A DNA stretch of 64,000 nt. Source: a virus. Its lineage: Duplodnaviria; Caudoviricetes. The DNA lies in IMG/VR virus record IMGVR_UViG_3300048549_001527; one strand, written 5' to 3'. Positions within the stretch are counted from its first letter, which is position 1, and each line of letters begins with the position of its first letter. This document shows positions 25,705 through 59,530 of the stretch, one piece after another. Position numbers and translations under genes: made by a program. Under the pieces are notes generated by a model, which had not been told where the DNA came from, searched no databases, and worked only from the letters and a program-made list of their open reading frames with translations.

Positions 25705-25736
25705 AAGATGATTCCTTTTGTTTACCTTATAGAATC

Positions 25737-25765
25737 AATCTATACTATTCTGGACTAAATGTCAA
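25737..25765 (-). promoter_or_regulatory. sigma70-type early promoter
   Basis: TTGACA-17-TAGATT, with TGATTCT immediately downstream. Confidence 0.7.
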
Positions 25766-25774
25766 TAGTTAATT

Positions 25775-26254
25775 TCATAATGCTGTAGGAAATGGGGGAT
25801 TACCTATTTCCGGCAGTTCATCAAATACTGTGTTTGCCCAAAGAACTCCAGTTCTCATTCTAGCATCAGTCCCATAAGGAAGCACTTGCCCAGTGCAGTT
25901 TATGGTTACTGTTTCATCATCATCGTTAAATGTAATACCGCCGTGCAAATTGGCAGGTACAATAATATTAGGAGAAGCTGTATTCAAATCAACCATCCTA
26001 AAAGATAGGTCATCTTCAGTGTACGTTAAACCTTCAGACTGTAACATGCGATTAATACACACAAGTAAAGTAGGTACTACATAAGATTGAAACTCGTATA
26101 TTGGATATCCGTTTTCATCGGTTGTCTCTGTATTGATTGCTGCAAAAAGAGAGCAGTGCTGTGCCCACTCTTGCACTTGATCATCAGTTACTCCATCAAT
26201 TTTAACTGGATATTGGATGTACCAAAGCTTGGTCTGAGTTGGAATATTGCTCAT
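25775..26254 (-). CDS. Hypothetical protein, late
   Basis: 159 aa, downstream of TATAAATA at 26284-26291. Confidence 0.55.
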   Translation of the reverse strand: MSNIPTQTKLWYIQYPVKIDGVTDDQVQEWAQHCSLFAAINTETTDENGYPIYEFQSYVVPTLLVCINRMLQSEGLTYTEDDLSFRMVDLNTASPNIIVPANLHGGITFNDDDETVTINCTGQVLPYGTDARMRTGVLWANTVFDELPEIGNPPFPTAL

Positions 26255-26283
26255 AATAATGCCTCATGTTGATCTGTTTAGTC

Positions 26284-26291
26284 TATTTATA
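26284..26291 (-). promoter_or_regulatory. T4-type late promoter
   Basis: Exact TATAAATA. Confidence 0.6.
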
Positions 26292-26295
26292 AAGA

Positions 26296-26544
26296 CTAGT
26301 CGTAATGCCCACCAAGTACTGCAACTTTTTTGATTTCTTCGTTAAACATTTCAGCTTCTCTTTGCTTCCATGCTTGTTCAAATCCGTCTTCATGGATATA
26401 ACTTTCGTTATTTCCCCAAAGTCTTTTAAAATATGAATCGTAGGTTTTTTCAACTTCTGTGTCGGACCAGGAAACATCAATTAGTTTTCCTTTTATCATC
26501 CAATTCAAACGGTTGGCTTCTTTACGTACAAATGGACTGCGCAT
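26296..26544 (-). CDS. Hypothetical protein
   Basis: 82 aa, SD aggagg. Confidence 0.6.
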   Translation of the reverse strand: MRSPFVRKEANRLNWMIKGKLIDVSWSDTEVEKTYDSYFKRLWGNNESYIHEDGFEQAWKQREAEMFNEEIKKVAVLGGHYD

Positions 26545-26644
26545 GGTGGGACCTCCTATATAAACAATGTAATATTATTTATGTTTTAGTGGTACTTACC
26601 ATGCGCTATGTTAACGGTAACATTCAATATTTATTTAATTTATT

Positions 26645-27055
26645 TTACAAAGCTTTATTTAAATCACCGTGATTACCTTCGTGTGAAGGTGGTTTCCAAC
26701 CCAATGGTTTTAACAAATCAGGCAAACCAAAACGATTAGGTCGGCCAGGTTTTACACCAGGTTCCTTTGCCATGTTAGCTTCGTAAATAGCGTTCCATGC
26801 TTTATTAGCATCAACGCCAAATACATCAAGTGTACCTAACGCGAATACACACATATCAATCAAGCCATCAACAACTTCTTCAGCATCTGAATTATTAATA
26901 GCCGATAATGTTTCTTGGTATTCTTCGCCAATCATAAGCATCCGAAACATCAGATATTTGCTCATCAGATCTTTATCACCACGATTCTTTTGAAACCAAT
27001 CATGCACTCCAAATTTGTCATGCATCATATTCATATCGTTTGCCATATCAGTCAT
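26645..27055 (-). CDS. MazG/PRA-PH-like all-alpha nucleotide pyrophosphohydrolase
   Basis: EEYQE...EEVVDGLID motif, EANMAK, and KP.GW..P tail. Confidence 0.75.
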   Translation of the reverse strand: MTDMANDMNMMHDKFGVHDWFQKNRGDKDLMSKYLMFRMLMIGEEYQETLSAINNSDAEEVVDGLIDMCVFALGTLDVFGVDANKAWNAIYEANMAKEPGVKPGRPNRFGLPDLLKPLGWKPPSHEGNHGDLNKAL

Positions 27056-27230
27056 TATTTTTTAGTCCTTCACTTTTTAAAATTGCGATCTTATCTTTAA
27101 TACGTAGTCTTTCTTTCTTGGCTTTTTGAACATATTTGTCTGGCGCGTTTTCAGCCTCTAGGCATTCAACGACAGTGTTCTGATAACGCCAAGATGCTTC
27201 AAGCGTTGCTAATTTGTGGTTCGGCGTCAT
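27048..27230 (-). CDS. DUF465/YdcH-like small coiled-coil protein
   Basis: KKERLRIKDKIA motif. Confidence 0.5.
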   Translation of the reverse strand: MTPNHKLATLEASWRYQNTVVECLEAENAPDKYVQKAKKERLRIKDKIAILKSEGLKNND

Positions 27231-27239
27231 ATTATTCTC

Positions 27240-29816
27240 CTATGCAAAGAAATCTTCGAGTGTGTTAATTTTTTCGGCAGACCATCCGATAGCTTCAAGG
27301 ATTGCTTCTATTGGGTTTAGGAATACCTTCTCAAACTGTTTATCATAGTCAATGTAATTTGTCAACTCAAATTCAGGGGGTAATACACCTGGAAAAGAAA
27401 TAATGTTTTCTTTAATCGGGTTTGGTACTTTAAGGTATACAAACTTGATCTTTCCACCACCTTCAATTACTTCATACCTTTTGTTTAGCTTAAGTTGTTT
27501 TAGATGATTGTTATATAGAATACATCCACGTACATGCATCGGACAACCTTTCTTATAGGTACCTTTGACAATATACTTACCGATGTTATCAGTACCTGAG
27601 TTGCGTCCAATATCTTCAGGTGGTAACTTTCTGAACTCTTGGCGGAACTCTTCAATAAAGTCCTGCATGGCCGTTTCACCTTCGTTCATAATAACCTTAA
27701 ACGATTTCTTTAGCTTTTCACGGCATACTTCAGGAGTTGACGAGCGAACAGACTCAAGTCCTGTAACAGAAATCTTTGGCTCTTCGTAATGAACGCCTTC
27801 AGAGTTTAGCGTGTTCATAATGTAACGCTTCTTAGCGATGAATACAGATTTATCAGTAATCTTTTCGCGTTTCATACCCATAGCTTGACGATATGCGCCC
27901 ATCTTTTTAGCAAGATCTTCATAGCCGGCTTCAATAACTGGCTCAATCTTCATTTGGCAAACTTTATCTAAGAATGCTTCGCCTTTTTTACGGTCAATAT
28001 CAACAGTGCCAAACGCAGACTCAACAATAGGAGCCATGTCAACATAAATTGAGTCAGTGTCAATATATACAATATAGTCCTGGTTGTCTGTCTTGAGGAT
28101 CTTATTCATATAATCATTAACAGACTTTTGAGCATATCGGATTGATAACTGGCCTGACGTTGTAATTGCTTCAGCCATATCGTTAATATAATATAAAAAG
28201 TAGATATTTGCCATTGCGCCATATAATGAGTTCATACTAATTTTGATAGCCATCTGAGCATTGTGTAGCTGATTTGCTTTTCGTTTTAGTTGCTCTTTTT
28301 GAGCTGAGTCAGTTGCGTTTTCAAGGTCTTGCTCAACTTTCAACATTTCTTGTTTAATGATCTTACGATTTCCATAATATTCATCAATGATTTCAGGAAT
28401 GATACCGAGATGATTATTTGTAAAACAAGCGCCGTTGGCCGCGACCGACATGTCAGTTCTTTGACTTTGATACTTCCCGCTCAATACCATATCCTGCGAT
28501 ACGTTTTCACGTTCATCTTCAAGATATGTTTCAGGAGACATATTGTATTGCAACATCAAGTGAGGATACAGCGAGTTCAAATCAAACGATACAATCCAAG
28601 GATGCATACCGACTTTAGGATCTTTAACATAACCGCCAACCAATTCACCAGCCCTTTGTCCTGGGCCACCTTTAATTGGAGGAATACGATTTTCTTTAAT
28701 TAGTTTACGGTATAAGGTTGTTTCCCATATACCCACAGTACCGAAAGCATCGCCGTAGTTGACTCCACCACCGTATGCAACAGTCATGACTAACTGAAGC
28801 AAACTCGTTTCATCTTCAAATCTTTGGATCAACCATGTATCTTTAAGATTATAGTCAAGATACAGTTGTGGATTTTGTTCATATAAGTTTGTAAGGTTAC
28901 CATACTCAGAATAGTCCATCTTCTTTTCGCCGAGAATAACGTGAGCAATGTGGTCAAGTTTCCACGACTCCTGAGGACCATACTTATAGCCAAACTTTTT
29001 AAACGCATCCATATAGTCAATCACGGCGATGCCACCGATGCGGTATGAACCCTGATCTTTACCGAAGAACTCACGGGAATATGGACGAACAGAACGCCAA
29101 GGAGACAGTTCTTTAATACGTTCTTCACCTAACAGGTTTTTCATACGCGTTATAATATATTGAATGTCAAAGAATTCAACGTTCCAACCTGTAACAATAT
29201 CAGGATAGTCGTTTACCCAAATCTGTAAGAACCTGCGAAGTAATGCCTCTTCGGTATCAAACTTCATGAATTGAATATCATCTTGAGGAATGTTAGTCAG
29301 AGTTTTTGTCTTATCGTAATCTTTACGTCCAAGCAAATGGTAAGTATCAGATTTGGAAGACTTGATTGCAATTGATGTAATTTCTTTATCAGCAAAATCC
29401 ATATCAGGATAGCCGTCAGAAACATCAACCTCGATGTCAAAAGACACAATGTTAATCAACGATGGATCAAATTTGATTTCATTAGGATATTTTTCTTGGA
29501 TGAATTGCGATACGTAATTCGTATTACCACATATTTCAATACCATGAACACCTTTATATTGCTCGGTAAATTCTTTAGCATCTTTCATACTATCAAATTT
29601 CTTTGCGGCAATTGGTTTTTTGGTAAATAAAGATTGGTATTGCGATTCTTGTTTCTGCGTTGTCAAAAACAAGGTTGGCTCGTACTTGACTTTGCGTTCA
29701 AATCTACGGCCGTTTTCGTATCCTCGCCACAAGATTGTATTACCAAATCTTTCGACCGATGTATAAAAGTTAGACATGTTTATCCTTTGTGTATTGTATA
29801 CCGTACATAGTACCAC
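27240..29816 (-). CDS. 43: Family B DNA polymerase gp43
   Basis: FDIE exonuclease [28 protein letters not shown]. Likely start ATG 29777. No intein or intron. Confidence 0.97.
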
Positions 29817-29831
29817 TTAATGTTGAATTTG

Positions 29832-30530
29832 TCAACCATTATTTGTGAGATACATCATAAAACCTGAACCCCACCCAATAGGCCATTCGCCAGTCAACCA
29901 TTCATCATCATACGCCTTTTGCTTATGCTTAGGATCAAGATATCTAATCTTACCATTATATTTAGAAAGTAAATTGTCTCTGATCCACATGAATTGTTTA
30001 GGAGCATCTTCAAATACATCAAGATGCCATTCGACTGCAATATGTTTAACGTTATTACATAGGAAATCCCAATTTCTTTCAGTAAAGATACTATACTCCC
30101 CACCTTCAATATCAATCTTAAGATAGTCAATATGGTTTATGTTATGCTTATACAAGAACTCAGAAAAGACCATAGTCTTAGCATTAGAATCACTAAAAGA
30201 ATTCAAAGTATGATCTTTTTCAGATCCAATGAATGCGTTCTCAGGCACAACCGATCCTGGGTTCTCTACTAAATGCGGTAAAACGTTTTTCATAGTTGTT
30301 GATAGTAATTGCAGACTTGGCTCTACTGAATACACCTTCGAGGCTCCTAAGTCTAAAGCGCGACACGTAAACATACCTACGCAAGCTCCAAGGTCAACTA
30401 CAATATCACCAGCCTTAACTGGTACCCACCAATCATATGTCTCTTTATGAAAGAATTCTTTAAACATTGTTTCAAGTGTTTCAAGATCATTAAGTCCTTC
30501 GGTAGACATTGAGTTATTTAACAAAGTCAA
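29832..30530 (-). CDS. FkbM-family methyltransferase
   Basis: VVDLGACVG and IDYLKIDIEGGE motifs. Confidence 0.8.
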   Translation of the reverse strand: MTLLNNSMSTEGLNDLETLETMFKEFFHKETYDWWVPVKAGDIVVDLGACVGMFTCRALDLGASKVYSVEPSLQLLSTTMKNVLPHLVENPGSVVPENAFIGSEKDHTLNSFSDSNAKTMVFSEFLYKHNINHIDYLKIDIEGGEYSIFTERNWDFLCNNVKHIAVEWHLDVFEDAPKQFMWIRDNLLSKYNGKIRYLDPKHKQKAYDDEWLTGEWPIGWGSGFMMYLTNNG

Positions 30531-32239
30531 GCTGTAACCTCACTAAAGTTTTTAACTTTTTGAAAACGAATATGATTATCAAACTTATCACCAAACTGAT
30601 GACCACGATGGCTAATAACAAATATATTATCATCAGCGTTTAGATTATGTAATGTGTCAATAAGATTTTCAATACCGACTGAGTCAAGAGCGCCATCCAA
30701 CGTTTCGTCAAGTAGCAATAAATTGGTAGAAACAGAATTTCTTAGTTTCGCAACAGAACGCCAAGCCAACATAATTGACAACGTGATCCTGAGCTTTTCG
30801 CCTTCGCTGAACGATGCGTAAGAAAACGCGTCGCGGAACCTTGACTTAATTACTTCATTAAAGTTTTCGTCAAGTTGGAAGTCAACAAATAAATCAAACG
30901 CGCCGAGGTACTTATTAATTAGTTTGTTCATAACAGGAATGTATTGACGAATGATCTTTGCTTTAATACCACCATCTCTTAACATTGTTTGGACAACGCT
31001 AATTACTTCTTTTTGATTAAACAAATCCTGCTGTTTTATTTCAAATTCTTTTAATTTTGTACTTAACTCTTCGAGCTTTGATGTATCAACTGCTTCAACC
31101 TGTTCTTCAGCTTTTGTTAATTCATTCTTATATGATTTCAAAGCATTCATAGATACCTTAATAGTTGCACGATGGTCGCCAATAGTCAAATTAAGTTCAG
31201 AAATCTGATCCTCAACGTTTGATATTTCTTCAACTCGCGTTTCGTAGCTTGTTATCTTTTCCAATAACTGTTCAAGACCGCCGTCAAGTTCGCCAATCTT
31301 TTTACCTTTATCGGTAATAATAGTTTCTTTGAAATCGTGTTCAATACCCTGTTTACATGTTGGGCAGTTATCGTGATTGTTATAAAAAGAAAGCTCATCA
31401 TGATGGCTACGAAGTTTAATAGCTAATTCTTGTTTTAATTTCTTTGCTTTGTCAATCTTTGATTTGACTGATTGCTTATCTGTAATAGTTTTAACCAGTT
31501 CTTCAATATTTGTTTGAAGCTGCTCTATTGCTTCTTTTTCTTCTTCGACCTTAACTAAATGGCCTGACATTTTTTCACGTACTTTTTCAACTTCATCTTC
31601 ACGGATCTTACGGATTGAAGCGTTGTGCTCCTTTGCAGAATCAAGCTTTTGCTCTGTAAGATCCATTTGGTAACCAGTTTCAGCAATATTATCTTTATTA
31701 ATTGATACACGATCTTTTAGCAAAGTATTCATTGTACTAAAGACTTGAATATCTAACAAATCTTCGATAATATCGCGACGTGTATGAGCAGGCAACTCCA
31801 TAAACGGAACATAGGTTGCACTACCTAATACTACAATTTGATTAAATGATTTATAATTTAAGTTGAGAATGTTTTGCTCAAGATACGATTGGTAATCTCG
31901 AGACGCAGCGTCCTGATTTATGACTTCACCATTTTTCCATATTTCAAAGACGACGGGCTTAATGCCACGGCGAACCATATATTTGTTTTGACCAATTTGA
32001 AACTCTATTTCAACAAGAGTGTCTCGACCATTAATACTGTTAATAAGTTGGTTCTTATTAATTTTACGAAATGCTTTACCGTATAAACCAAAAACGATAG
32101 CGTCCAACAATGTTGACTTACCGCTACCATTTGTACCGCTGATTAAAGTTGTTCTGTTATTATTAAGCGGGATTGTTGTCCAAGAATTACCAGACGACAG
32201 TAAATTTTTATAACGAACAGTTTTAAATTCAATCTTCAT
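30527..32239 (-). CDS. 46: Recombination endonuclease ATPase subunit gp46 (Rad50-like)
   Basis: GTNGSGKS, CPTC hook, SFSEGEK, LLLDE. Confidence 0.95.
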   Translation of the reverse strand: MKIEFKTVRYKNLLSSGNSWTTIPLNNNRTTLISGTNGSGKSTLLDAIVFGLYGKAFRKINKNQLINSINGRDTLVEIEFQIGQNKYMVRRGIKPVVFEIWKNGEVINQDAASRDYQSYLEQNILNLNYKSFNQIVVLGSATYVPFMELPAHTRRDIIEDLLDIQVFSTMNTLLKDRVSINKDNIAETGYQMDLTEQKLDSAKEHNASIRKIREDEVEKVREKMSGHLVKVEEEKEAIEQLQTNIEELVKTITDKQSVKSKIDKAKKLKQELAIKLRSHHDELSFYNNHDNCPTCKQGIEHDFKETIITDKGKKIGELDGGLEQLLEKITSYETRVEEISNVEDQISELNLTIGDHRATIKVSMNALKSYKNELTKAEEQVEAVDTSKLEELSTKLKEFEIKQQDLFNQKEVISVVQTMLRDGGIKAKIIRQYIPVMNKLINKYLGAFDLFVDFQLDENFNEVIKSRFRDAFSYASFSEGEKLRITLSIMLAWRSVAKLRNSVSTNLLLLDETLDGALDSVGIENLIDTLHNLNADDNIFVISHRGHQFGDKFDNHIRFQKVKNFSEVTA

Positions 32240-33306
32240 GCAACCTGCTGTGCCTCAATATATAAATCATCAATTAACATTTTAATATCTTTCCTATCAA
32301 CCTTCGTGTCAAGAGAGTCAATATAACTATGTAGGATTTCTTTTGTATCCTTTGTTTCATCAAGGATATCTTCAACCCCTTCTGACTCTAAATTAAGACT
32401 GTCCTCAATAGCTTTAACATCAGCAGCGCCTGCGTCAGTTAATTTATTAATGAACAAGTCATATATGTATGGATTGGAACGTTCTTTCACAATCACTTTA
32501 ATATATGCATCTTTGATATTATCAGTATCCAAGGATGCAATTTCTTCAATAGTCATATCAGTATCGTCGTAGTCTATCTTATGATAGATTTGAAACGGAT
32601 TTAAGATCCATTCCAATTCACGGGTTTCAGTATCAAGTATACGGAAACCACGACGCCCTTCGTAATCGGACCAAGTCATTTCATACGGAGCGCCAAGGTA
32701 CTTAATATTGCCATACTCTGAAGGATGGTGAAAGTGTCCTGAGTAAACTTGCTCAAAATGAGTGAACACATCTTTCTGTAAACCGTGGTCGTTAATTGCG
32801 CCTTTCAACATTTCAAAACCTTGAATAGCAAAGTGGCCCATACAAATGTTTGCAGTTGAGTTTTTTATTGCCGTAAGACTTGTTTCCATATTATCTTTTG
32901 TAAGCCATGGAACCATAATAACACTAGTTGACCCAAATGTCAACTCAATTGGATTGTCTTGATAAATGTTGAAGTTTGAATACTCTTGAAGCAATAGGTT
33001 CATCGAGTTAACTTCGTTGGTGTTTGTATAATATACAGAATGATTTCCAACGATTGCATGATATTCAATGTTGCGATTTGATAATTGGTCAAAGAACATT
33101 TTCTTAGCTCTTGCAAGTGTAACATAATTGACATACTTGCGGCGGTCAAACGTATCACCAAGATCTAGAACAATCTTAATATCATGTTTATCTAAATACG
33201 GAAAAAATATTTCGCTGAAAAACTTTTCTTGATGATCCAAGAATACTTTAGAGTCACCTCGTACACCGAGATGCATATCTGTAATAATTGCTATTTTCAT
33301 TACCAA
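32236..33306 (-). CDS. 47: Recombination endonuclease subunit gp47 (Mre11-like)
   Basis: TDMHLG, LGDTFD, VGNH, SGHFH motifs. Confidence 0.95.
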   Translation of the reverse strand: MVMKIAIITDMHLGVRGDSKVFLDHQEKFFSEIFFPYLDKHDIKIVLDLGDTFDRRKYVNYVTLARAKKMFFDQLSNRNIEYHAIVGNHSVYYTNTNEVNSMNLLLQEYSNFNIYQDNPIELTFGSTSVIMVPWLTKDNMETSLTAIKNSTANICMGHFAIQGFEMLKGAINDHGLQKDVFTHFEQVYSGHFHHPSEYGNIKYLGAPYEMTWSDYEGRRGFRILDTETRELEWILNPFQIYHKIDYDDTDMTIEEIASLDTDNIKDAYIKVIVKERSNPYIYDLFINKLTDAGAADVKAIEDSLNLESEGVEDILDETKDTKEILHSYIDSLDTKVDRKDIKMLIDDLYIEAQQVA

Positions 33307-33979: not shown

Positions 33980-34066
33980 ATGATAACCTTTCTAGATCAA
34001 ACATTTTGTATATCATATGGTAATTAATATAAGTCAAGTTTTGAAAAAATTATTTATTCTCCAATA

Positions 34067-37540: not shown

Positions 37541-37569
37541 ATTCTACACTAGAATCAGTGGAATGTCAA
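37541..37569 (-). promoter_or_regulatory. sigma70-type promoter with GANTC in the spacer
   Basis: TTGACA-ttccacTGATTCTagtg-TAGAAT. Confidence 0.75.
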
Positions 37570-38071: not shown

Positions 38072-38100
38072 TTTACATTCTGTCCCGAATCAGTTAGTAT
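38072..38100 (+). promoter_or_regulatory. sigma70-type promoter with GAATCAG
   Basis: TTTACA-ttctgtcccGAATCAGt-TAGTAT. Confidence 0.65.
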
Positions 38101-38239
38101 AGATATTTATAATAAATAGAGTAACCGGTAACAGAAACAAGGATCTGTATGGACAACGACGACATTCCGCATAAATGGGATGATCCGTGCGATGATTGTA
38201 CTCATTGGTTTTGAGTATACTATATAAAATGGAGTAAAT

Positions 38240-40069: not shown

Positions 40070-40221
40070 TAGAATGGTATGATATACTAGCTGCAACCTT
40101 TTGTGCGTGGCTAATACTAAACTTTTTCTTCTTTCCATTTATCGGTCCCATTATATCATACAGTTTGTGGGAAGCTTGGAAAGTGTATTGCAATTATCGG
40201 TTGACATCTACACTCAAATAG
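40066..40221 (+). CDS. 51-aa membrane protein (not in ORF track)
   Basis: ATGA overlap; MIEWYDILAATFCAWLILNFFFFPFIGPIISYSLWEAW... Confidence 0.5.
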   Translation: MIEWYDILAATFCAWLILNFFFFPFIGPIISYSLWEAWKVYCNYRLTSTLK

Positions 40222-40253
40222 TGTAGAATATATAGAATCACAAAGGAAATATA

Positions 40254-42016: not shown

Positions 42017-42045
42017 TTGACATTCTATCGCGAATCAGATAGTAT
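42017..42045 (+). promoter_or_regulatory. sigma70-type early promoter with GAATCAG
   Basis: TTGACA-ttctatcgcGAATCAGa-TAGTAT. Confidence 0.75.
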
Positions 42046-42071
42046 AGTTCTATAAATGGAAGGAACTATAC

Positions 42072-43031: not shown

Positions 43032-43407
43032 AGTAGATAATTTAGATGATTCTTTAACAAAAGACTTTGTTAATTTTTGTTGTAAAGAGCTTAATATAAA
43101 ACCTCATAGCATTGAAGTTGTTGGCGCTGCGTATTTAGCAGGTAAAGACAGAACAGGAATGTGTATAGATCTTGACGAACAAAGCTATATAATAATGACT
43201 GCAGTTAAAGATCGTACTCTTACTGAAATATATACTACTGTTGCACATGAAATAGTTCACATCAAACAATACATGGAAAATAATCTCGGTAAATTACTCG
43301 ACAGCAACAAACCAAAATACGAAGATCGTTGGTGGGAAAAGGAAGCAAGAGAAAAAAGTTTGGTTTTTGTGAAAAAATTTGTTGACATTCTTGATAGAAT
43401 CAGATAG
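42994..43407 (+). CDS. Small HExxH metallopeptidase-like protein (paralog of 41603-42013)
   Basis: TVAHEIVHIKQY and WWEKEA; true start probably 43021. Confidence 0.6.
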   Translation: MMKVKKFGKMNIKVDNLDDSLTKDFVNFCCKELNIKPHSIEVVGAAYLAGKDRTGMCIDLDEQSYIIMTAVKDRTLTEIYTTVAHEIVHIKQYMENNLGKLLDSNKPKYEDRWWEKEAREKSLVFVKKFVDILDRIR

Positions 43408-43410
43408 ATT
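43382..43410 (+). promoter_or_regulatory. sigma70-type early promoter with GAATCAG
   Basis: TTGACA-ttcttgataGAATCAGa-TAGATT. Confidence 0.75.
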
Positions 43411-43440
43411 ATATATATCAAATGGAAAAAAGGAATCACC

Positions 43441-47489: not shown

Positions 47490-48190
47490 AAATACAAAAT
47501 ATTGCCTTGTTTCCAACGAATGTAACTCACGCACAACATGAGGTTAGCAAAGAAGAACAAGATCTTTGGTTTGATTTGTATTTAAAACATTCTAATGAAG
47601 ATGGGAGAACTCATGACCTTTTAGGATATGAACAAATCCAATTAGAGCCAAGCCTAGAAGGTTTCTTTAAGCATAAAGTAATGCCGAGTGTACGTGAATA
47701 TTTCAAAACGTTAAGTGTTGACTCAAACAAGTTTAACGTCCATATAACTAAAACTTTCTTTAACGTTGTTGACGATAACGGAATCAATAAACACAACCAC
47801 GAAGAAAACCATATATCATTTACTTATTATCCATATATAAAACCAGGAAAAGAAAGAAGTATTATATTATATGATACTAAATCTTGCCATTCAAACGAAA
47901 TAAACACAAGTTGGTTTTTTCATTATGTTGATAAATGGACTGAAATGAATTGTACTAATTTTTCTATACCAGTAGGTCAAGGTTCTATGCTTATTTTTCC
48001 AAGCAATATGAACCATGATATCACAAAAGAAAAACATGAAAGTACAGTTATAAATTCGTTTAAAACTAAAGAGGATTTACTTGAAAGCCGGTTTTGTGTT
48101 GCAGGTGATATGATCATTACAAAAAAACCAGAAGCAAAAGTTTATATGAGAACTTTATCATCTCCTGAAAATTGGAAAACATTTGGTTGA
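47486..48190 (+). CDS. 2OG-Fe(II) oxygenase-like protein
   Basis: HNHEENHISFTYY and LIFPS...HD motifs. Confidence 0.65.
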   Translation: MKIQNIALFPTNVTHAQHEVSKEEQDLWFDLYLKHSNEDGRTHDLLGYEQIQLEPSLEGFFKHKVMPSVREYFKTLSVDSNKFNVHITKTFFNVVDDNGINKHNHEENHISFTYYPYIKPGKERSIILYDTKSCHSNEINTSWFFHYVDKWTEMNCTNFSIPVGQGSMLIFPSNMNHDITKEKHESTVINSFKTKEDLLESRFCVAGDMIITKKPEAKVYMRTLSSPENWKTFG

Positions 48191-48215
48191 CATTCTAAAA
48201 GAATCAGTATAAATT
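48187..48215 (+). promoter_or_regulatory. sigma70-type promoter with GAATCAG
   Basis: TTGACA-ttctaaaaGAATCAGta-TAAATT. Confidence 0.6.
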
Positions 48216-50070: not shown

Positions 50071-50073
50071 GGT

Positions 50074-51700: not shown

Positions 51701-51702
51701 TG

Positions 51703-52257: not shown

Positions 52258-52369
52258 TTTTCTTGCAGCTGCATTTTATGCATACGTCATTTTGGCAATC
52301 TTTACAGTCAGGTCTATAACAATGGCAATCATGGCCGCACGACGTACATGTTCTTTTTGATTCTTGCAT
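52250..52369 (-). CDS. 39-aa Cys/His-rich metallothionein-like peptide (not in ORF track)
   Basis: SD aggag; MQESKRTCTSCGHDCHCYRPDCKDCQNDVCIKCSCKKND (9 Cys, 2 His). Confidence 0.65.
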   Translation of the reverse strand: MQESKRTCTSCGHDCHCYRPDCKDCQNDVCIKCSCKKND

Positions 52370-52378
52370 GTGTATCTC

Positions 52379-53074
52379 CTATTCTGATAACGGATTATCT
52401 AATGCTTCTTGTATTGTTTCTTTGAGGTCCTTTTCTAATAATCTCATTTCACTATCAATATTAGTTTGTGTATCACGCATAGTATTACGTACGTCTTTTT
52501 CAGACGCTCTTATCGTCGCTTCAACTTCACGGATAGACGAAGTTACGTCTTTTTGAAGTTCGTTCATTTCAGTACGAATACCTTCAAGAGTACCACCAAT
52601 ACTATTTTGTGTATTCTTAATTCTTGCTTCTGAATTGTCAAGGTTAGTTGAAATTGTATCTCTTAAGTTTGCCATTGTATCTTGGTTATCTTTAAGAGTT
52701 ATTCTTAGCCTTTCTTCGAAGGCATCAAGTTTTGCGTATATATCTTTACGCAAATCTCTTACGGTGGTTTCAGCCGCAATAACCTGATCTTCTAATACTC
52801 CTATTAAATTTTCAGAACGGGCAATGTCACCTTTTAAATCGTCTTTAATATCTTGTGTATATCCTATAGCGTCTTCAAGCTTTTGTAGTTGCAATGCATT
52901 TGCTGCGGCGATTTCGTCAATGTCAATGTTTTGAACAATTTCTTTCATGTCCATATAGTCCGCATAAAATTCAAAACCGGCCCATGCGCCACCACCTAAA
53001 GTAGATAGTGCGGTTAAGACAGCAAACATTTTACCACCTTTAAACGTGGTTCCGGCAAATTCAAATTCAGCCAT
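52379..53074 (-). CDS. Inner-membrane-anchored long coiled-coil protein
   Basis: N-terminal TM (FAVLTALSTLGGGAWAGF) then about 190 aa of amphipathic helix. Confidence 0.65.
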   Translation of the reverse strand: MAEFEFAGTTFKGGKMFAVLTALSTLGGGAWAGFEFYADYMDMKEIVQNIDIDEIAAANALQLQKLEDAIGYTQDIKDDLKGDIARSENLIGVLEDQVIAAETTVRDLRKDIYAKLDAFEERLRITLKDNQDTMANLRDTISTNLDNSEARIKNTQNSIGGTLEGIRTEMNELQKDVTSSIREVEATIRASEKDVRNTMRDTQTNIDSEMRLLEKDLKETIQEALDNPLSE

Positions 53075-53077
53075 ATA

Positions 53078-53488
53078 TTACTCCTCGAAAGATAATTCTT
53101 TCAACTGCTGAAGCTCTCTTCTTAAACGTTCTAATTCCAGCGATTTTAACTGTAATTCCATTTCATATAATCTATTACAATCAATTCTTTCTTTAGGTCT
53201 TGCGCCGAGTGGTATAACAATCCTTGCATATACACCAACGTTATCAACTCTCCTATCATTAACATATCGATTCACATCATCATAATAACCGCCGTCAATA
53301 AGACCAGTTACACCGAGCTCAAGTTGTGTAGCCGATCCGATGGCATTAGAACAATCTAAATCACCAGCCCTAAATTTATCGGATTGGTAATTACCTGGTG
53401 CACTCGGTAATGCCAAACTTACCGAACCAGAGTCTGCGTTTACTGTTGTCGTAAACAACATTAAACACAATGAAATAATATAACGCAT
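53078..53488 (-). CDS. Secreted protein with signal peptide and Cys pair
   Basis: MRYIISLCLMLFTTTVNA/D; VGVYARIVIPL beta-hairpin; C-terminal coiled coil. Confidence 0.6.
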   Translation of the reverse strand: MRYIISLCLMLFTTTVNADSGSVSLALPSAPGNYQSDKFRAGDLDCSNAIGSATQLELGVTGLIDGGYYDDVNRYVNDRRVDNVGVYARIVIPLGARPKERIDCNRLYEMELQLKSLELERLRRELQQLKELSFEE

Positions 53489-53495
53489 AATGTTC

Positions 53496-53870
53496 TCACT
53501 TTAATTTGGAGCATATCCTTGATTTTACTCCGGTTGATAGTACATCATCCCTCAAAAGTTTAGAGGTAGTACATATATATACAGCCTTAGCTTTGTGTTC
53601 ACTTTTGATATAAACCTCAAATTGTTTCTTTTCTAAATAACCAAGCTTTATAACTTTATCTTGTGAAGCAAACGGAAGTGCCTCCCAATATTTATCAAAG
53701 ACTTCTATTTCGTAATACTCTACATCTGTTCTTCTATTCCATATATCCATAGTTGTCACCAACACACCATCTACGTACGCAGGTCGTAACTCAGGGTATG
53801 TTGGCGTCAATTCGTGTGATGTAACCGCAGTACTTATTAACACAAAAATCAAACTCACTAGGTATTTCAT
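53496..53870 (-). CDS. Secreted Ig-fold/periplasmic chaperone-like protein
   Basis: Signal peptide ending AVTS/H; beta-rich; YICT...SRIC Cys pair. Confidence 0.45.
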   Translation of the reverse strand: MKYLVSLIFVLISTAVTSHELTPTYPELRPAYVDGVLVTTMDIWNRRTDVEYYEIEVFDKYWEALPFASQDKVIKLGYLEKKQFEVYIKSEHKAKAVYICTTSKLLRDDVLSTGVKSRICSKLK

Positions 53871-53909
53871 TTTTAATCCTTCACTTTACTCTTTACGCAA
53901 ATTAACACC

Positions 53910-54413
53910 TTAGTCTGCGATACACTCTGCAACAACATTAGCTTTATATTCACCACCTGGTAGTGATTTGCCTACGCCATACTTTGCTTCTGATTCAACT
54001 TGAAACCAAGTAGACCCAGCTACACTAAGATCGTATTCAGTGTGATTATCGTATTCAATTTTAGCTGCTTCATATCCTGACATATTAGTATCTGATGTAT
54101 TAGATACTGTAACTTCGCCATCCCACGTTACTGAGTCACTAAGACTCGGTGCGGAAGTAAACGATGTTGGCCAGGAAATTTTAGCGGTATAGTAGTCTGC
54201 AATAGCAACGTCATAGCGTACAACTGGATAAACACCGCCGTCCGCTGGGATTGTGCTCAATTCGTCTGGTGTAGGGTTACCATAAACCCCAGCTGTGTCT
54301 GTAAAAATTGAGCATTTTGACGCAACGTTACCGGTGATTGGAGTTTCTGCTGCGCCTACAGATCCGCCTAGCATAATAGCTGCTACGCTACTAAATATTA
54401 GATGTTTGAACAT
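53910..54413 (-). CDS. Secreted pilin-like (fimbrial subunit-like) protein
   Basis: Likely start 54413; signal peptide SVGA/A; N-terminal ITGNVASKCSI; C-terminal PGGEYKANVVAEC. Confidence 0.5.
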   Translation of the reverse strand: MFKHLIFSSVAAIMLGGSVGAAETPITGNVASKCSIFTDTAGVYGNPTPDELSTIPADGGVYPVVRYDVAIADYYTAKISWPTSFTSAPSLSDSVTWDGEVTVSNTSDTNMSGYEAAKIEYDNHTEYDLSVAGSTWFQVESEAKYGVGKSLPGGEYKANVVAECIAD

Positions 54414-54423
54414 ATATTTCTCC

Positions 54424-55323
54424 TTATCGTTCATATTGAGAGCGTACCATAGATTTATGATTAGCATCAGATGCCAAGTTTCTCATCGCTCTTCGGTTGT
54501 CTGGATAACTAGATGAAGGCAATACTAAAGTATCTTCGTATATACCTCCAGGAATAGTTATTTCATAATATGGTACAATCTTTGGATTTAACGATAAATC
54601 AGCTAAGATTTTTTGTTGCGCGGTACTATCGACTAATTTGTCAATATTATTATTACCGCCAAGCTGTTCTTCCAAATCATCCTCTACTTCATTATTGGTT
54701 GTTTGTTCTATTTCTTCTTCGTCTTCTACATTTGCTTCACGGTTCAATTCAGCCTGAACCCATTCATCATAATAAGGATCTCCAATTGACGGTGGAACGG
54801 CAAGTGAAGCTAAATATTCTTGTAATGCTGTCGAATATCCAGGACAACTTGGATCTGATAATGGTGAAAGACATTTATAACTATCATCTACCACCATCTT
54901 ATAATTATAAACCACAAATGGATCCGTAACCGTACCTTCTCCTTCAACACTTATTTCTCCATCTCCCCACCTAGAAGAATCTGTATATCCAAATCTAAAA
55001 AATTTTCTTACAGACCCACCTGGGTTACCACTCCAATCATCTGTTTCTTCAAAAATATTTTGCCCAGGATTTGCAAGGTCTTCGTTTGAAATTGTAACCT
55101 TTGCGTCTGCCTCAGGATCTTTTACCATTGTATATTGATAAGCTAAACCATTTACTTCTACTGTAATATAAGGTGAAGCTGAATCAGGTAATACATTTTT
55201 CATTGCCCACGCTAAAGCATCCGCTGCGGCGTTATTTGTTGAATGATACGTTGTATCAGAGTAACAATAAGAGGAGGAGGCCGCCAACAATGCCACCGCC
55301 GAACAAAGTAGACTTAGTCTCAT
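54424..55323 (-). CDS. Secreted acidic protein
   Basis: Signal peptide; beta-rich N-domain; CLSPLSDPSCPG motif; acidic linker. Confidence 0.6.
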   Translation of the reverse strand: MRLSLLCSAVALLAASSSYCYSDTTYHSTNNAAADALAWAMKNVLPDSASPYITVEVNGLAYQYTMVKDPEADAKVTISNEDLANPGQNIFEETDDWSGNPGGSVRKFFRFGYTDSSRWGDGEISVEGEGTVTDPFVVYNYKMVVDDSYKCLSPLSDPSCPGYSTALQEYLASLAVPPSIGDPYYDEWVQAELNREANVEDEEEIEQTTNNEVEDDLEEQLGGNNNIDKLVDSTAQQKILADLSLNPKIVPYYEITIPGGIYEDTLVLPSSSYPDNRRAMRNLASDANHKSMVRSQYER

Positions 55324-55828
55324 CGTTCATATCCTTTATTATATTACTTTGCGGATCTTCAGGTTGTTCATCGCGATTTGCTATCCATGCTGCTTTAGCT
55401 GCGTCCCCAATCATACCATCATAAGGGCAAGGTGTTCCTGCATCCATCATAGCGTTAAATACGCGAGGATCTTGGCACATCACTGAAACCGCAGCAACTT
55501 TCATTCCCATATCATATAATGTTTTAGCGTTCTTTAACTTTTCACAATTCATATCACGAACCATCTTGGCACCTGATATACCCAATATTTGTGTTTGGAC
55601 TGCGCCGGAAACTCCAACTGTACATAAGTCTGAGTTAGCTGAATTAATCGAAGGGGCGATCGCCGACGGCGGTGGAGAATTAACTGTAGTCTCCGATGTA
55701 CTATTACTATTGATAGTACTTTCTGTTGTACTTTCTGTAACTATTGGCTCTGCCTCCACTGCGGTTGTTCCAATGAAAGGTATAAATAATAAAAACAGAA
55801 AGAGTAAATGTTTAGTCATAATGTTCAT
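55256..55828 (-). CDS. Secreted Cys-rich protein with C-terminal hydrophobic anchor
   Basis: Signal peptide AVEA/E; Ser/Thr-rich linker; four Cys; LFGGGIVGGLLLLLLL tail. Confidence 0.65.
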   Translation of the reverse strand: MNIMTKHLLFLFLLFIPFIGTTAVEAEPIVTESTTESTINSNSTSETTVNSPPPSAIAPSINSANSDLCTVGVSGAVQTQILGISGAKMVRDMNCEKLKNAKTLYDMGMKVAAVSVMCQDPRVFNAMMDAGTPCPYDGMIGDAAKAAWIANRDEQPEDPQSNIIKDMNDETKSTLFGGGIVGGLLLLLLL

Positions 55829-55871
55829 CCCATATTAGTAATGATAAAAGCATACTTTACTCTATTATATA

Positions 55872-55879
55872 TATTTATA
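55872..55879 (-). promoter_or_regulatory. T4-type late promoter for the secreted-protein operon
   Basis: Exact TATAAATA, 44 nt upstream of ATG 55828. Confidence 0.7.
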
Positions 55880-55933
55880 AGTTTTTTAAGAGTGTCAAAG
55901 TTTTGACACATAATATAATTTGACAGTTGCAAA

Positions 55934-57262
55934 ATGAAAACAATCGTTAACAAAATAAAAATTTGGACGTGGGATATAGCTGTTTGCCCGGTGCACAAGA
56001 CGGCAATGTGGTATGGACCAGAGTCTCAAAAATTTGGCGAATCTTTGGATCAAGTTAAAACAATTTGGTATGATAAAAAAATACGAGAACAGTTTTTTAA
56101 ATATTTTGCAGACGAACAAGACGAAGAATGTTATGGAGAATTTAGACCTTCATACAAAATAATAAATCAAGATGTAGTCAACGATAACGATATAAATCTT
56201 ATAATTTTACCAGGTGATGATACTCGTACTTTAGCTGAAATTCCTGGGTTATTATTAAAAAATCAAGACTTAATAAACTTTGCAAATAACAATAATGTTA
56301 CGATAGTTATAGCATGGATATTCGAGCATATATCGTTAAATCCTGATTACTATATAGGTAATCCTGATTTTAAAAATTTCTTTTTAGAATTTGATAAATT
56401 GTGTGAACAGTTACCACCAAGCAAATTTCAATGGCTGTTAAATTCATACGATACAAACCACAAACATCTTGATATTGGAACACACCTTGAAAAATATAAA
56501 CCATATGTAACACACATTGATTGTTTTGATAAGATTTCTCATTTTCCATATATTCAGTGGGATCCGTATGCAAATCATGAATACAAGTTATCAGTGCCAG
56601 TTGGAATGATAGACGGAAGGTGGCTACGTTTAGACTTAATTGCTGAATTGATTGAAAGAAACATATTATGGCAAGATGACGTAATACATACGCAAAACGT
56701 ACCAAACCCAGAAGCATCTATTAAAAAATATTTAGAAAATCCAGACCCAGTATTAAAACAATCTGTACACGATACTGTAAACCGCGTAGGTCCTGAAAAT
56801 GTTTTTAAACACCGTATTTTAAATGATAATGGCGAAGATATTAAAACGAGTTGGATGAAAGTTGCAACAGGACAATTTTGGTATAGGACTCCACCGCAAT
56901 TTATAGATTCGCAATTTCAAGTTGTAATTGAATCAAGAACTCATATACCATCAATTACTGAAAAAATTTATAGGCCATTAATGCTAGGGCAACCTTTTCT
57001 GTGGATTGGTGCGTCAGGTATAAAAACATATTTGGAAAGTAAAGGATATAAGTTTTATCCATGGATTGACTATTCGTTTGACGCGGAGCATAACCAATTA
57101 TATCGCTTTAACATGGTAATGGATGAAGTAGAAAGATTGTATCATACTGATTTGTCGCAGTATTTAATTGACAGCGATGAGATAAATATACATAATATAA
57201 AGGCATTTAGATATAATGAAAATGATATATCTGATATGGAAAGGTTTTTAAATGATTTATAA
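55934..57262 (+). CDS. Hypothetical protein with glycosyltransferase-like C-terminus
   Basis: VVIESR...ITEKIYRPLMLGQPF...GYKFY..IDYSFD, resembling the GT10-like TEK motif. Confidence 0.45.
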   Translation: MKTIVNKIKIWTWDIAVCPVHKTAMWYGPESQKFGESLDQVKTIWYDKKIREQFFKYFADEQDEECYGEFRPSYKIINQDVVNDNDINLIILPGDDTRTLAEIPGLLLKNQDLINFANNNNVTIVIAWIFEHISLNPDYYIGNPDFKNFFLEFDKLCEQLPPSKFQWLLNSYDTNHKHLDIGTHLEKYKPYVTHIDCFDKISHFPYIQWDPYANHEYKLSVPVGMIDGRWLRLDLIAELIERNILWQDDVIHTQNVPNPEASIKKYLENPDPVLKQSVHDTVNRVGPENVFKHRILNDNGEDIKTSWMKVATGQFWYRTPPQFIDSQFQVVIESRTHIPSITEKIYRPLMLGQPFLWIGASGIKTYLESKGYKFYPWIDYSFDAEHNQLYRFNMVMDEVERLYHTDLSQYLIDSDEINIHNIKAFRYNENDISDMERFLNDL

Positions 57263-57797
57263 AATAAAACTAAGACATGATTTTTCAACCTTTTTGAATG
57301 CTGATTACGAAAAACACAAAGGTAGTTGTATAAGTTACCAAGTTCGCGAACAAGAAGATATTCATAAAACATTTGGTGGATTTCCGGAAAGTTACTCCAA
57401 AGAAAACACAAAGATCCAACAACTATGGTTTGATCCTATTGATGTAGACTTTGAAGAGCTTGGCAATAAATTAAAGATTGAGCCAGTTACAATAAGTACG
57501 ATATTGCAACCGCCTGGGAATACTATTACAATGCATAGGGACACGTTTTTTAAAATAAATAAATTGTTTCCTGATGATAAACGTAAAAAGGTAAGAGCTA
57601 ATATTTACTTAGAAGATTGGGCTCCCGGCCATTTTATAAATTATCAAGATCATTACAAAAAATGGCAAACAAGTACTCATTGGAAAGCTGGTGATGGGTT
57701 TGTTTGGGATAGTGATCATTTACACCTTAGCGCAAATGCTGGCTTAACGCCAAAATATACTTTACAGATTAGTGGATTTTATAATGGAAGGGAATAA
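57252..57797 (+). CDS. Cupin/2OG-Fe(II) hydroxylase-like protein
   Basis: MHRDT, HLSANAG and YTLQISG motifs. Confidence 0.65.
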   Translation: MIYKIKLRHDFSTFLNADYEKHKGSCISYQVREQEDIHKTFGGFPESYSKENTKIQQLWFDPIDVDFEELGNKLKIEPVTISTILQPPGNTITMHRDTFFKINKLFPDDKRKKVRANIYLEDWAPGHFINYQDHYKKWQTSTHWKAGDGFVWDSDHLHLSANAGLTPKYTLQISGFYNGRE

Positions 57798-57799
57798 CT

Positions 57800-58063
57800 A
57801 TGAGCAAACCAATTAATGAATTAGAAGGTTGGGTATTTGAATATTTAAAAAATGAAACAGGTGAAGATTTAACAAGAGAACACTTGATTAGTAATTATAT
57901 TGATTCTTTAGACGTAATGAATATTGTTATGGAAGCCGAAGACGTATTTTATCCAGGAAAAGAAATTCCTGATAACGTAGTTAGAGAATGGATACAAAAC
58001 ATGGGTACCATTGGTGAATTCATCGATAATGTACATTCTTATGCAGTAAGACTTCAAACTTAA
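57800..58063 (+). CDS. Acyl carrier protein-like
   Basis: YIDSLDVMNIVMEAED (DSL phosphopantetheine motif); acidic; 87 aa. Confidence 0.7.
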   Translation: MSKPINELEGWVFEYLKNETGEDLTREHLISNYIDSLDVMNIVMEAEDVFYPGKEIPDNVVREWIQNMGTIGEFIDNVHSYAVRLQT

Positions 58064-58121
58064 AATAAATATATGGCGATAATCGCATTCCGATAACAAT
58101 TATAATAAATGAGGAAATAAA

Positions 58122-58604
58122 ATGAGCCATCAAAACGAATATGACGTGACTGTCGTTAAAGTAGTCGACGGTGATACTGTAGATGTAGATATTGATCTAG
58201 GTTTTGGTATTTGCCTAAAAGATGAAAGGGTACGCATCATGGGTATTGATACACCTGAGTCAAGAACGTCAGACCGTGTAGAAAAACTATTCGGTAAAGC
58301 ATCAAGTAAAAGACTCGGCGAGCTTTTAGAAAAAGACGCAAAACTTATCACAACTGAAAACAAACATGGCGAGGATATGAAAGGCAAATTTGGTCGTATC
58401 CTTGGTGATTTCAGAGCAGCCGATGGGCGTTTAATAACAGAAATCATGGCTGAAGAAGGACACTGCGTTCCGTATTTTGGTGGATCAAAAGAAGACACTC
58501 AAGCAGCTCATATGGCCAATCGTGAACGTTTACTCGCTGAAGGATTAGTTAATCGTGAAGATTACGATAAGATGGTTATTGCAGAAGCCAACGAAAAAAA
58601 ATAA
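58122..58604 (+). CDS. Staphylococcal nuclease (SNase)-like protein
   Basis: VVDGDT, RIMGIDTPE and KFGRILG motifs. Confidence 0.9.
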   Translation: MSHQNEYDVTVVKVVDGDTVDVDIDLGFGICLKDERVRIMGIDTPESRTSDRVEKLFGKASSKRLGELLEKDAKLITTENKHGEDMKGKFGRILGDFRAADGRLITEIMAEEGHCVPYFGGSKEDTQAAHMANRERLLAEGLVNREDYDKMVIAEANEKK

Positions 58605-58626
58605 TTCGTTTTCACTAAAAAAGTTG

Positions 58627-58655
58627 TTGACATTTGGTTTAGAATCAGTTATATT
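58627..58655 (+). promoter_or_regulatory. sigma70-type early promoter with GAATCAG
   Basis: TTGACA-tttggtttaGAATCAGt-TATATT. Confidence 0.8.
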
Positions 58656-58686
58656 GTTTATATAAGGTAAACAAAGGAACAACCAA

Positions 58687-58917
58687 ATGTCAACAATTAC
58701 ACATCTTCCAAACGGTTCAATGATTAAAGCTGATGTTGTCGAGAGCTTTCAAAAAGCAATCCGCAACGATTTTAACTTGCGCCCTGGTTTTGGTTCAACA
58801 GATTTTTGGAATTTTGTTGAGTCTGATATGTATATGGATCTTGCTGGAATTTACGCTTCAACATACATCGACGAATGCTTTGAAGCATTGGCTGATCTTG
58901 AAATGGAGACAGTATAA
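58687..58917 (+). CDS. Early hypothetical protein
   Basis: 76 aa, SD aaggaa. Confidence 0.6.
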   Translation: MSTITHLPNGSMIKADVVESFQKAIRNDFNLRPGFGSTDFWNFVESDMYMDLAGIYASTYIDECFEALADLEMETV

Positions 58918-59156
58918 TGGAACCTTGGATTCAAGAAACTCGCAATGGCTTTGAAATGGCTGAAGAAGAAATTAATCGTATTGAAGCTCGGCCTGCCCAA
59001 GGTGAACAGTCTTGCATGGTTCAGTCTGATATGAAACAGTGGGCTCTTAAAAAGGGTCTGTGGCCATCCGAACCATATAAGAATATGATTGTTCTGCACG
59101 CAATTGACCGTGGTTGGTTACAAGAAAACTTTACTGGAATGGAGATCGTAGAATGA
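58917..59156 (+). CDS. Early hypothetical protein
   Basis: 79 aa, coupled. Confidence 0.55.
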   Translation: MEPWIQETRNGFEMAEEEINRIEARPAQGEQSCMVQSDMKQWALKKGLWPSEPYKNMIVLHAIDRGWLQENFTGMEIVE

Positions 59157-59395
59157 ATAGTGTTGAAAATCCTTACATGGAAGACGTAATTGTAACTGAA
59201 GGATTACCACGCCACGGGTCGCCTCAAGATCGCGGTAGTGCAGATGCTTATTACCATCGTCCTTATGATCCTCATTACTATGTTGGTGATTCTATTACTT
59301 CGGAAAGAGTAGAAAAAGACAATATGACTGTTGGTGAAATTGAGGCTTATAAATACGGTTATGATAATGAAGACGATCGTAAGGATTGGGGATGA
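59153..59395 (+). CDS. Early hypothetical protein
   Basis: Likely start 59153; HGSP.DRG.AD.YY.R...PHY motif. Confidence 0.6.
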   Translation: MNSVENPYMEDVIVTEGLPRHGSPQDRGSADAYYHRPYDPHYYVGDSITSERVEKDNMTVGEIEAYKYGYDNEDDRKDWG

Positions 59396-59501
59396 TTTAT
59401 TGTATTAACGGCAAACGCTTTGATTGTGTTCTTGACGCCATAGAATACAGAGATATTCTTGATGCTCATTATATTAAAGTGGTATGGAAGCAAATTAACT
59501 A

Positions 59502-59530
59502 TTGACATTCTGTTTAGAATCAGTTATATT
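59502..59530 (+). promoter_or_regulatory. sigma70-type early promoter with GAATCAG
   Basis: TTGACA-ttctgtttaGAATCAGt-TATATT. Confidence 0.8.

Follow-up and report, generated by a model that had tools for sequence, protein, structure and literature searches.

A subset of the early σ70-type promoters of an uncultured marine T4-like phage appears to hold a candidate site for GcrA of the host, with the form TGATTC[T/G] on the template strand, a reading to which we assign a probability of about 0.5. These promoters lie in a 64,000-nucleotide (nt) stretch of DNA (IMG/VR record IMGVR_UViG_3300048549_001527; hereafter the window), which is a section of such a phage genome with a GC content of ~37% and carries uvsY, the topoisomerase genes for gp39 and gp52, and the gene for a T4-type DNA polymerase whose top match is to cyanophage polymerases (44% identity). 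DNA near-identical to the window was not present in the phage collection searched, and at least 303 relatives of its gp39 were found in IMG/VR. A complete 221,447-bp relative, G001, whose gp39 is 78% identical, was used for whole-genome comparison, and the window, G001 and related IMG/VR loci were pooled into a single promoter set.

We listed 17 σ70-type promoters in the window, taken as TTGACA-N16-18-TAnnnT placed before genes. Six of them contain GAATCAG with its GAATC 3-4 nt before the -10 element, so that GAATC stands at one of two fixed offsets in 6 promoters against an expectation of 0.018 (Poisson, 4e-14). A comparison of GANTC in spacers with background, proposed in a preliminary description of this DNA, gave 7 of the 17 promoters and a mean of 0.71 in spacer shuffles, of which 0 out of 20000 reached 7. 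One further promoter carries the motif inverted, and two others have GAATC or GATTC just after the -10. All the positions given in that description proved correct: the -35 elements start at 38072, 42017, 43382, 58627 and 59502, and in the 17-bp spacers that follow them GAATCAG takes up positions 10-16; at 48187 the motif is shifted by one toward the -35; the uvsY copy is inverted; copies lie beside the -10 at 25732-25736 and 40235; and the promoters at 22220, 24067 and 35261 lack it. Over the whole window GAATCAG is not enriched (11 copies, 8.3 expected) and GANTC is depleted (129 versus 194.5 +/- 12 expected); the signal is therefore positional.

The preliminary description had taken the element for a fixed GANTC site. 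Its position is indeed fixed, but GANTC in general is too broad a definition, because the conserved unit is [A/C]GAATCA (hereafter the box), the reverse complement of TGATTC[T/G]. GASTC (S, G or C) does not occur at the fixed spacer offset, where GAATCAG is found in 30 of 30 cases, and intergenic GASTC is not enriched in G001. The lineage yielded 107 distinct class A promoters, defined by a TTGACA-type -35, a 17-bp spacer and GAATC 3 nt before the -10, with the profile TTGACAtt...t.taGAATCAGtTATAtT. Their -35 and -10 elements are of the housekeeping σ70 type (TTGACA-N17-TAnnnT), and with the -10 hexamer set at -12 to -7 the box occupies -21 to -15. GAATCAG is invariant in this profile and spacer positions 3-8 are almost without information. 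The base before GAATC is A in 63% of the promoters, C in 26%, G in 7% and T in 2%; the base after it is A in 104 of the 107.

The seventh base of the heptamer, G at -14, is kept in 106 of the 107 class A promoters. Downstream copies of the heptamer end in T, C or A, not G, and this G is therefore read as half of an extended -10 element, which looks specific to the spacer copies and would lie outside the box. Among box-less promoters of the lineage TGn is present in 155 of 355, and at the orthologous gp39 promoter the box type and the TGn type replace each other among relatives. Counted from the start of the -10, boxes in the lineage are found at -8/-9 (37 cases), +7, +11 and +18 to +30, the downstream AGAATCA copies being clustered at +7, at +11 and in the leader near the ribosome-binding site. 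Five promoters of G001 have both a spacer copy and a copy directly after the -10.

Elsewhere in the genome GAWTC (W, A or T) is avoided. Under a maximal-order Markov model its observed/expected ratio is 0.61 in the window (z -4.9) and 0.64 in G001 (z -9.1), and it is the third most depleted of 1024 pentamers in both. Within genes, as judged from synonymous-codon shuffles, the ratio is 0.46 (z -7.3) in the window and 0.53 (z -13.3) in G001, and both sense orientations are affected (0.61 and 0.42). GASTC is not depleted under the Markov model and is slightly enriched in genes by the codon shuffles; the pressure on GAWTC is therefore not a generic avoidance of GANTC or of CcrM sites. Relative to the frequencies of its subwords, TGATTC ranks among the hexamers with the strongest over-representation (observed/expected 1.6-1.7), its density is 4-5 times higher in intergenic than in coding DNA, and the lineage genome retains GAWTC mainly as TGATTC beside promoters. 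A GAWTC-specific nuclease and the removal of weak reader sites are both possibilities for the purge. With the box invariant, the neighbouring spacer drifting and GAWTC purged from coding DNA, we conclude that the motif is under selection. Caulobacter phage Cr30 displays a milder depletion that is likewise confined to GAWTC. TGATC/GATCA is also depleted in the window and G001, and GATC is not.

The host of the window phage is alphaproteobacterial, the class being taken from a transfer-messenger RNA (tmRNA) gene and the order, Rhodobacterales, from a gene resembling that of the ATP synthase c subunit. The former is a full-length, circularly permuted gene of the alphaproteobacterial type, which ARAGORN did not report at 23706-24071 and which is predicted from the sequence to be transcribed from its own box-less σ70 promoter at 24067; for the latter, the best 80 of 445 genome matches are all Rhodobacterales, with 54-65% identity. 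GcrA was found in five of five Rhodobacterales genomes taken from these matches. Residues 1-45 of a GcrA from marine Rhodobacteraceae are near-identical to the Caulobacter protein (PDB 7YE1, 5YIU); R33, N34, I37, G38, K39, H41 and R42 are kept, and all base-contacting residues are identical to those of Caulobacter, where the seven bases of the site are all contacted, by R33, N34, I37, G38, H41 and R42 (Wu 2018, PMC5887438).

The Caulobacter GcrA consensus is TGATTCG, or more broadly YGAKTCK (Haakonsen 2015, PMC4647560), and the phage box as read on the template strand agrees with this optimum, both flanks included. Of the 107 promoters, 104 have T and 3 have C at the Y position, and 89% have T or G at K. 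Every box contains the GANTC pentamer targeted by CcrM as its core, always in a W variant (GAATC or GATTC). GcrA is a monomer tethered to σ70 domain 2, with sites at -20 +/- 1, -30 +/- 2 or +5 to +30 (Wu 2023, PMC9976885), and the sites of its direct regulon form a narrow peak near -20 and occur again at +2 to +30, with almost none at -10 (PMC4647560). The leader copies of the phage box lie inside this +2 to +30 range, and the scaffold used for cryo-electron microscopy of GcrA, TTGACA-N7-GAATC-N5-TATAAT, has GAATC on the same strand as the phage box. Like the GcrA promoters of Caulobacter, of which PcsM has its box in the spacer and PmipZ its boxes downstream, the phage promoters combine σ70 elements with a single asymmetric 7-bp site of the YGAKTCK type, carry GAATC on the non-template strand of the spacer and have more sites after the start and none over the -10; the action of GcrA as a monomer fits a box that lacks dyad symmetry. 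Unlike them, they belong to phage genomes and not to host cell-cycle genes, use only the W variant of GANTC, lie in DNA that is probably modified with hydroxymethylcytosine (hmC) and have near-consensus -35 and -10 elements, whereas GcrA targets in GC-rich hosts are weak.

The layout -35/N9/GAATC/N3/-10 is common to the T4-like lineage and to siphophages of Rhodobacterales. When IMG/VR was scanned for the exact class A pattern, 68 of 80 loci among the matches listed belonged to the T4-like lineage and most singletons looked like chance, but two unrelated groups also appeared, one represented by contig L223 and the other by contig L219 (IMGVR_UViG_3300032560_000261; 13 kb, 41% GC) with its near-copies. 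Proteins shared with the T4-like lineage cover ~13% of L219 and none of L223. The latter (52% GC) encodes a large terminase 67-69% identical to those of cultured siphophages, its relatives being DSS3P8 and V10 of Ruegeria pomeroyi, MD18 of Phaeobacter inhibens, RcXuper of Rhodobacter capsulatus, and RpAliso. All 7 TTGAC-type promoters that the scan retrieved from L223 have GCGAATC or CCGAATC 3-4 nt before the -10. The whole genome of DSS3P8 contains five promoters of the form CTTGCA-N11-GAATC-N3-TAT(T/A)GT, RcXuper two such promoters, and MD18 five promoters of the layout, compared with 0 in the control. On the template strand the siphophage boxes read YGATTCG; in these GC-rich phages GAATC is conserved and the -14 base is not. 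In L219 and its near-copies, about ten promoters have this offset occupied by GAATC or, in one case, GATTC, and the leaders end in TGATTCG on the coding strand directly before the start codon; the closest cultured relatives of the L219 proteins are mostly phages of alphaproteobacteria. The class A pattern had 0 matches in four T4-like phages of other hosts, S-PM2 (a cyanophage of Synechococcus), KVP40 (Vibrio), MHG19 (Yersinia) and the pelagiphage HTVC008M (SAR11), versus 13 in G001. For a layout common to phage families with few proteins in common, of which at least one has experimentally known hosts among the Rhodobacterales, a host reader is the simplest explanation, and a host factor is therefore favoured over a phage activator. 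The alternative offered in the preliminary description, a phage activator of the MotA type, is made less likely by this recurrence across families and fits poorly with the retained -35.

Several observations weigh against GcrA as the reader. The main structural objection is a shift of 2 bp toward the -10: the gap between box and -10 is 3 nt, compared with 5 nt in the sole solved complex of GcrA, RNA polymerase and promoter, and the spacer box is centred at about -18 instead of the published -20 +/- 1, published positions being counted from mapped starts and those of the phage from the -10 hexamer. The copies of the +7 class, centred at about -3, lie beyond the Caulobacter range, in the discriminator. 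Both use and purging are confined to GAWTC and never extend to GASTC, although TGAGTCG is another sequence that ranks high for Caulobacter GcrA (PMC4647560). The layout is absent from Caulobacter phage Cr30, Sinorhizobium phage phiM12 and roseophage CRP-738, all with hosts that possess GcrA; Cr30, which had been tried as a positive control, has early promoters of the form TTTACTT-N17-TAtAgTTCAT, almost none with GANTC, and lent no support. The full layout was matched 7 times in 41 Rhodobacterales genomes versus 4 times in the control, and GCGAATC-N1-7-TAnnnT gave 274 matches in 26 Rhodobacterales genomes versus 213 in the control, with no clear peak; these crude scans were uninformative, probably because the -10 and -35 elements of the hosts are weak.

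The chemistry of the phage DNA adds to these objections. G001 encodes a dCMP hydroxymethylase of the T4 gp42 type (E 1e-61 to PDB 1B49), and cytosines of the site are probably modified in the injected DNA, where the modification would lie in the groove read by GcrA. Binding of Agrobacterium GcrA is strictly methylation dependent (PMC13687562, from which host CcrM is also known), and that of Caulobacter GcrA gains only 1.4-1.7-fold from methylation (PMC4647560). The search for gcrA and ccrM homologues that the preliminary description had proposed was run on G001, where neither PF07750 (gcrA) nor the methylase profiles PF01555, PF02086 and PF05869 had a match and no adenine methylase gene of the CcrM or Dam type was found; PF01555 had no match in DSS3P8, MD18 or RcXuper either. 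The methylase of L219 was considered as a CcrM and ruled out, as it is of the D12 Dam/M.DpnII type and not CcrM-like. Since the lineage makes hydroxymethylcytosine and encodes no adenine methylase, methylation sensing, with gating of the effect by CcrM, is unsupported. The claim that these promoters exploit the GcrA/CcrM system of the host has accordingly fared differently in its two halves: its GcrA part gains support from the motif and its flanks, the alphaproteobacterial host, the GcrA contact residues and the layout in unrelated Rhodobacterales phages, but its methylation-reading part does not, given the missing methylase genes in G001 and the siphophages, the dCMP hydroxymethylase and the special status of GAWTC alone.

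At roughly even odds, GcrA is the best available explanation of the box, ahead of another reader, an intrinsic promoter element, restriction leftovers and inherited cassettes. That GcrA reads the box we infer from the documented motif, its position and conservation, the class of the host, the recurrence in other phages and the identity of the contact residues. The box might instead be read by some other protein, either a Rhodobacterales DNA-binding protein or a small monomeric phage factor spread between lineages, acting as an activator or as a repressor that shuts off early promoters. A 7-bp asymmetric site that flanks the -10 on either side would suit a repressor occluding RNA polymerase; the offset from the solved GcrA complex, the strict use of GAWTC and the lack of the layout in Cr30 and phiM12 would also be accommodated, and a host protein adapted to unmodified cytosine may be kept off hmC DNA. 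We regard such a reader as unlikely, because the motif matches the GcrA optimum base for base, in the flanks too, and no shared candidate gene was identified in three phage lineages that have few proteins in common. A classic palindromic or dimeric operator is excluded, as the ATTC-N6-GAAT dyad seen in five window promoters is conserved neither in G001 nor in the 107-promoter profile. Rather more doubtful is an intrinsic element read by the host holoenzyme with no accessory factor, in which a spacer element would be combined with half of an extended -10. The almost constant G at -14, the use of TGn in many box-less promoters and the exchange of the two types upstream of gp39 all speak for it; however, the heptamer recurs 3' of the -10 at several offsets without the trailing G, the L219 copies beside the start codon are in the opposite orientation, and such downstream and inverted copies cannot be explained by a fixed polymerase contact. 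The siphophages, moreover, keep GAATC and not the -14 base.

Two further explanations appear very improbable. The box could mark CcrM methylation or pressure from restriction-modification, with a GAWTC-specific host nuclease purging the motif and the promoter copies persisting as tolerated or methyl-protected leftovers. This would account for a depletion that is specific to GAWTC, affects both sense orientations and spares the slightly enriched GASTC, and for the milder GAWTC-only depletion of Cr30, but leftovers would not share one offset, one orientation and the same flanks in 107 promoters, nor would they recur in the same layout in other phage families, and hmC DNA is generally a poor substrate for restriction. 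We give equally little credence to the idea that the likeness is merely inherited, the promoters being copies of one mobile early-promoter cassette in which the box has no function of its own. Some promoter pairs, such as 43382 and 59502 with their leaders, are alike well beyond the core, and the DSS3P8 copies are near-identical repeats; against this, in relatives with 75-80% protein identity the box stays invariant next to a freely diverged 5' part of the spacer, and it also occurs in promoters of unrelated background, whose spacers are GC-rich and whose -35 and -10 hexamers differ.

If GcrA is the reader, a mechanism can be proposed in which the protein, riding on σ70 domain 2 as it does in alphaproteobacteria, meets its site beside the -10 with its small DNA-binding domain and thereby speeds the formation of the closed and open complexes. 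The phage promoters would then be matched to RNA polymerase that carries GcrA in a replicating host, and the result would be strong early transcription and a start of infection coupled to the cell-cycle state of the host. More tentatively, and with somewhat less confidence than we place in the site itself, we suggest that unrelated lineages of marine Rhodobacterales phages, including a very abundant uncultured T4-like group with hmC DNA, have converged on a GcrA site at a fixed position of early promoters that is fired by the GcrA-loaded polymerase of replicating cells, so that the onset of infection would depend on the cell cycle, possibly with a contribution from CcrM methylation carried over from the previous host.

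The only role known so far for GcrA is the regulation of cell-cycle genes of the host. We found no paper that links roseophages to GcrA or GANTC or describes GcrA boxes in phage promoters, and the sole published scan of alphaproteobacterial phages for GcrA sites was negative (PMC9437464). Should the proposal be true, abundant ocean phages would time their early transcription by a host cell-cycle cofactor, which bears on the infection of roseobacters during blooms, and they would provide a natural test of GcrA on hmC DNA and on a shifted site. The layout is also present in cultured phages whose hosts are genetically tractable, namely DSS3P8 (Ruegeria pomeroyi DSS-3), MD18 (Phaeobacter inhibens) and RcXuper (Rhodobacter capsulatus), which makes a bench test possible without culturing the T4-like phage.

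Related arrangements have been described in other phages. The CtrA sites of alphaproteobacterial phages, interpreted as a means of 'lytic deferment' (Mascolo et al. 2022, PMC9437464), likewise place sites for a master regulator of the host cell cycle in phage promoters, although the regulator is another one and its site is TTAA-N7-TTAA. That study also applied a GcrA matrix to phage genomes, reportedly without finding a signal; the phages found here either went undetected by its approach or were outside its set. The phiCbK-like phages of Caulobacter carry GcrA homologues (Gill et al. 2012, PMC3556154) and thus also have a link to the GcrA circuit, but they possess the protein, whereas the present lineage has the sites and no gcrA gene (PF07750 is absent from G001). 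The middle promoters of T4, with the MotA box and σ appropriation by AsiA, offer a parallel in a T4-type phage, with a short asymmetric box inside the promoter and a monomeric reader. There the MotA box, at about -30, replaces the -35; the class A promoters all retain their -35, with TTGACA intact and the box nearer the -10, and the box occurs also in siphophages unrelated to T4.

The promoters with a box and the two genes used for host assignment are collected in Table 1.

Table 1. Positions of box-bearing promoters and of host-indicating genes in the window
Feature	Position	Strand	Details
ATP synthase c-subunit-like gene (atpE)	10286..10510	-	closest cellular relatives all Rhodobacterales
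Two-piece permuted tmRNA gene, alphaproteobacterial type	23706..24071	-	RF01849 alpha_tmRNA 112.4 bits (cut-off 50), E 1.9e-31, full length; RF04321 120.2 bits
Promoter with TGATTCT abutting -10	25710..25765	-	GAATC on + strand at 25732-25736
uvsY promoter	37541..37569	-	TTGACA 37569-37564; -10 TGTAGAAT
Class A promoter, 5' of a small open reading frame and the gp39 topoisomerase gene	38072..38100	+	-35 TTTACA 38072-38077; box CGAATCAG 38086-38093; -10 TAGTAT 38095-38100
gp52 topoisomerase promoter	40201..40240	+	extended -10 TGTAGAAT; AGAATCA 40234-40240, about at the transcription start
Class A promoter	42017..42045	+	TTGACA, N9, GAATCAG 42032-42038 after C; -10 TAGTAT 42040-42045
Class A promoter	43382..43438	+	box 43397-43403; -10 TAGATT 43405-43410
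Class A promoter, box one position earlier	48187..48215	+	box 48201-48207
Class A promoter	58627..58655	+	box 58642-58648; -10 TATATT 58650-58655
Class A promoter	59502..59559	+	box 59517-59523; -10 TATATT 59525-59530

The promoter at 38072 is identical in the 97-99% relatives, and in more distant relatives this place is taken by the box or by an extended -10 of the TGn type. At 48187 the -10 is either TAAATT at 48210-48215, with a gap of 4 nt, or TATAAA at 48208-48213. The promoter at 58627 has a near-identical counterpart in G001 at 140855. The inverted box of the uvsY promoter reads CTGATTC on the minus strand (37552-37558 on the plus strand) and occupies spacer positions 6-12. In the gp52 promoter GAATCA follows the -10 after 5 nt (40235), an arrangement whose +11 offset class was seen 12 times in the lineage. 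Additional copies are located in three leaders: GGAATCA in that of the minus-strand promoter at 25765 (GATTC at 25710-25714 on the plus strand), GGAATCA at 43432-43438 in that of the 43382 promoter, where it adjoins the ribosome-binding site, and a second GGAATCAG at 59552-59559 in that of the 59502 promoter.

The regions 43382-43440 and 59502-59562 are alike over ~60 nt, including the leader ...tatatcaaatggaaaaaaggaatca, and look like duplicated cassettes of an early promoter and its leader, recalling the mobile promoter-early stem-loop cassettes of T4-type phages. Motifs resembling T4-type late promoters, TATAAATA, occur just 3' of the early promoters that precede gp39 and neighbouring genes, at 38100-38125 and 42046-42060 of the window and in relatives, which suggests that genes of the gp39 region may have both early and late starts.

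Three of the seven full-layout matches in Rhodobacterales genomes represent one orthologous promoter of an IclR-family regulator (genomes L319, L322 and L324), with GCGA(A/C)TCG exactly 3 nt before TAnnnT; this promoter may be a host example of the layout or may contain the regulator's own operator. Among the other four, one precedes an open reading frame with a response-regulator domain and three precede open reading frames without a Pfam match. The roseophage siphovirus family has a gene-poor region with five to seven repeats of the box promoters (L223 5800-9750; DSS3P8, KT870145, 141000-146135 and 183), each preceding a common leader, (g)aggtcaggaaa(c)gcg(c)ggcgg, and these promoter-leader repeats may represent a small RNA family or a conserved 5' structure. 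The early region of L219 combines about ten near-identical promoter-leader cassettes with genes for an S-adenosylmethionine (SAM) lyase, the Dam/M.DpnII-type methylase, a zeta-toxin-like kinase and a DUF932 protein.

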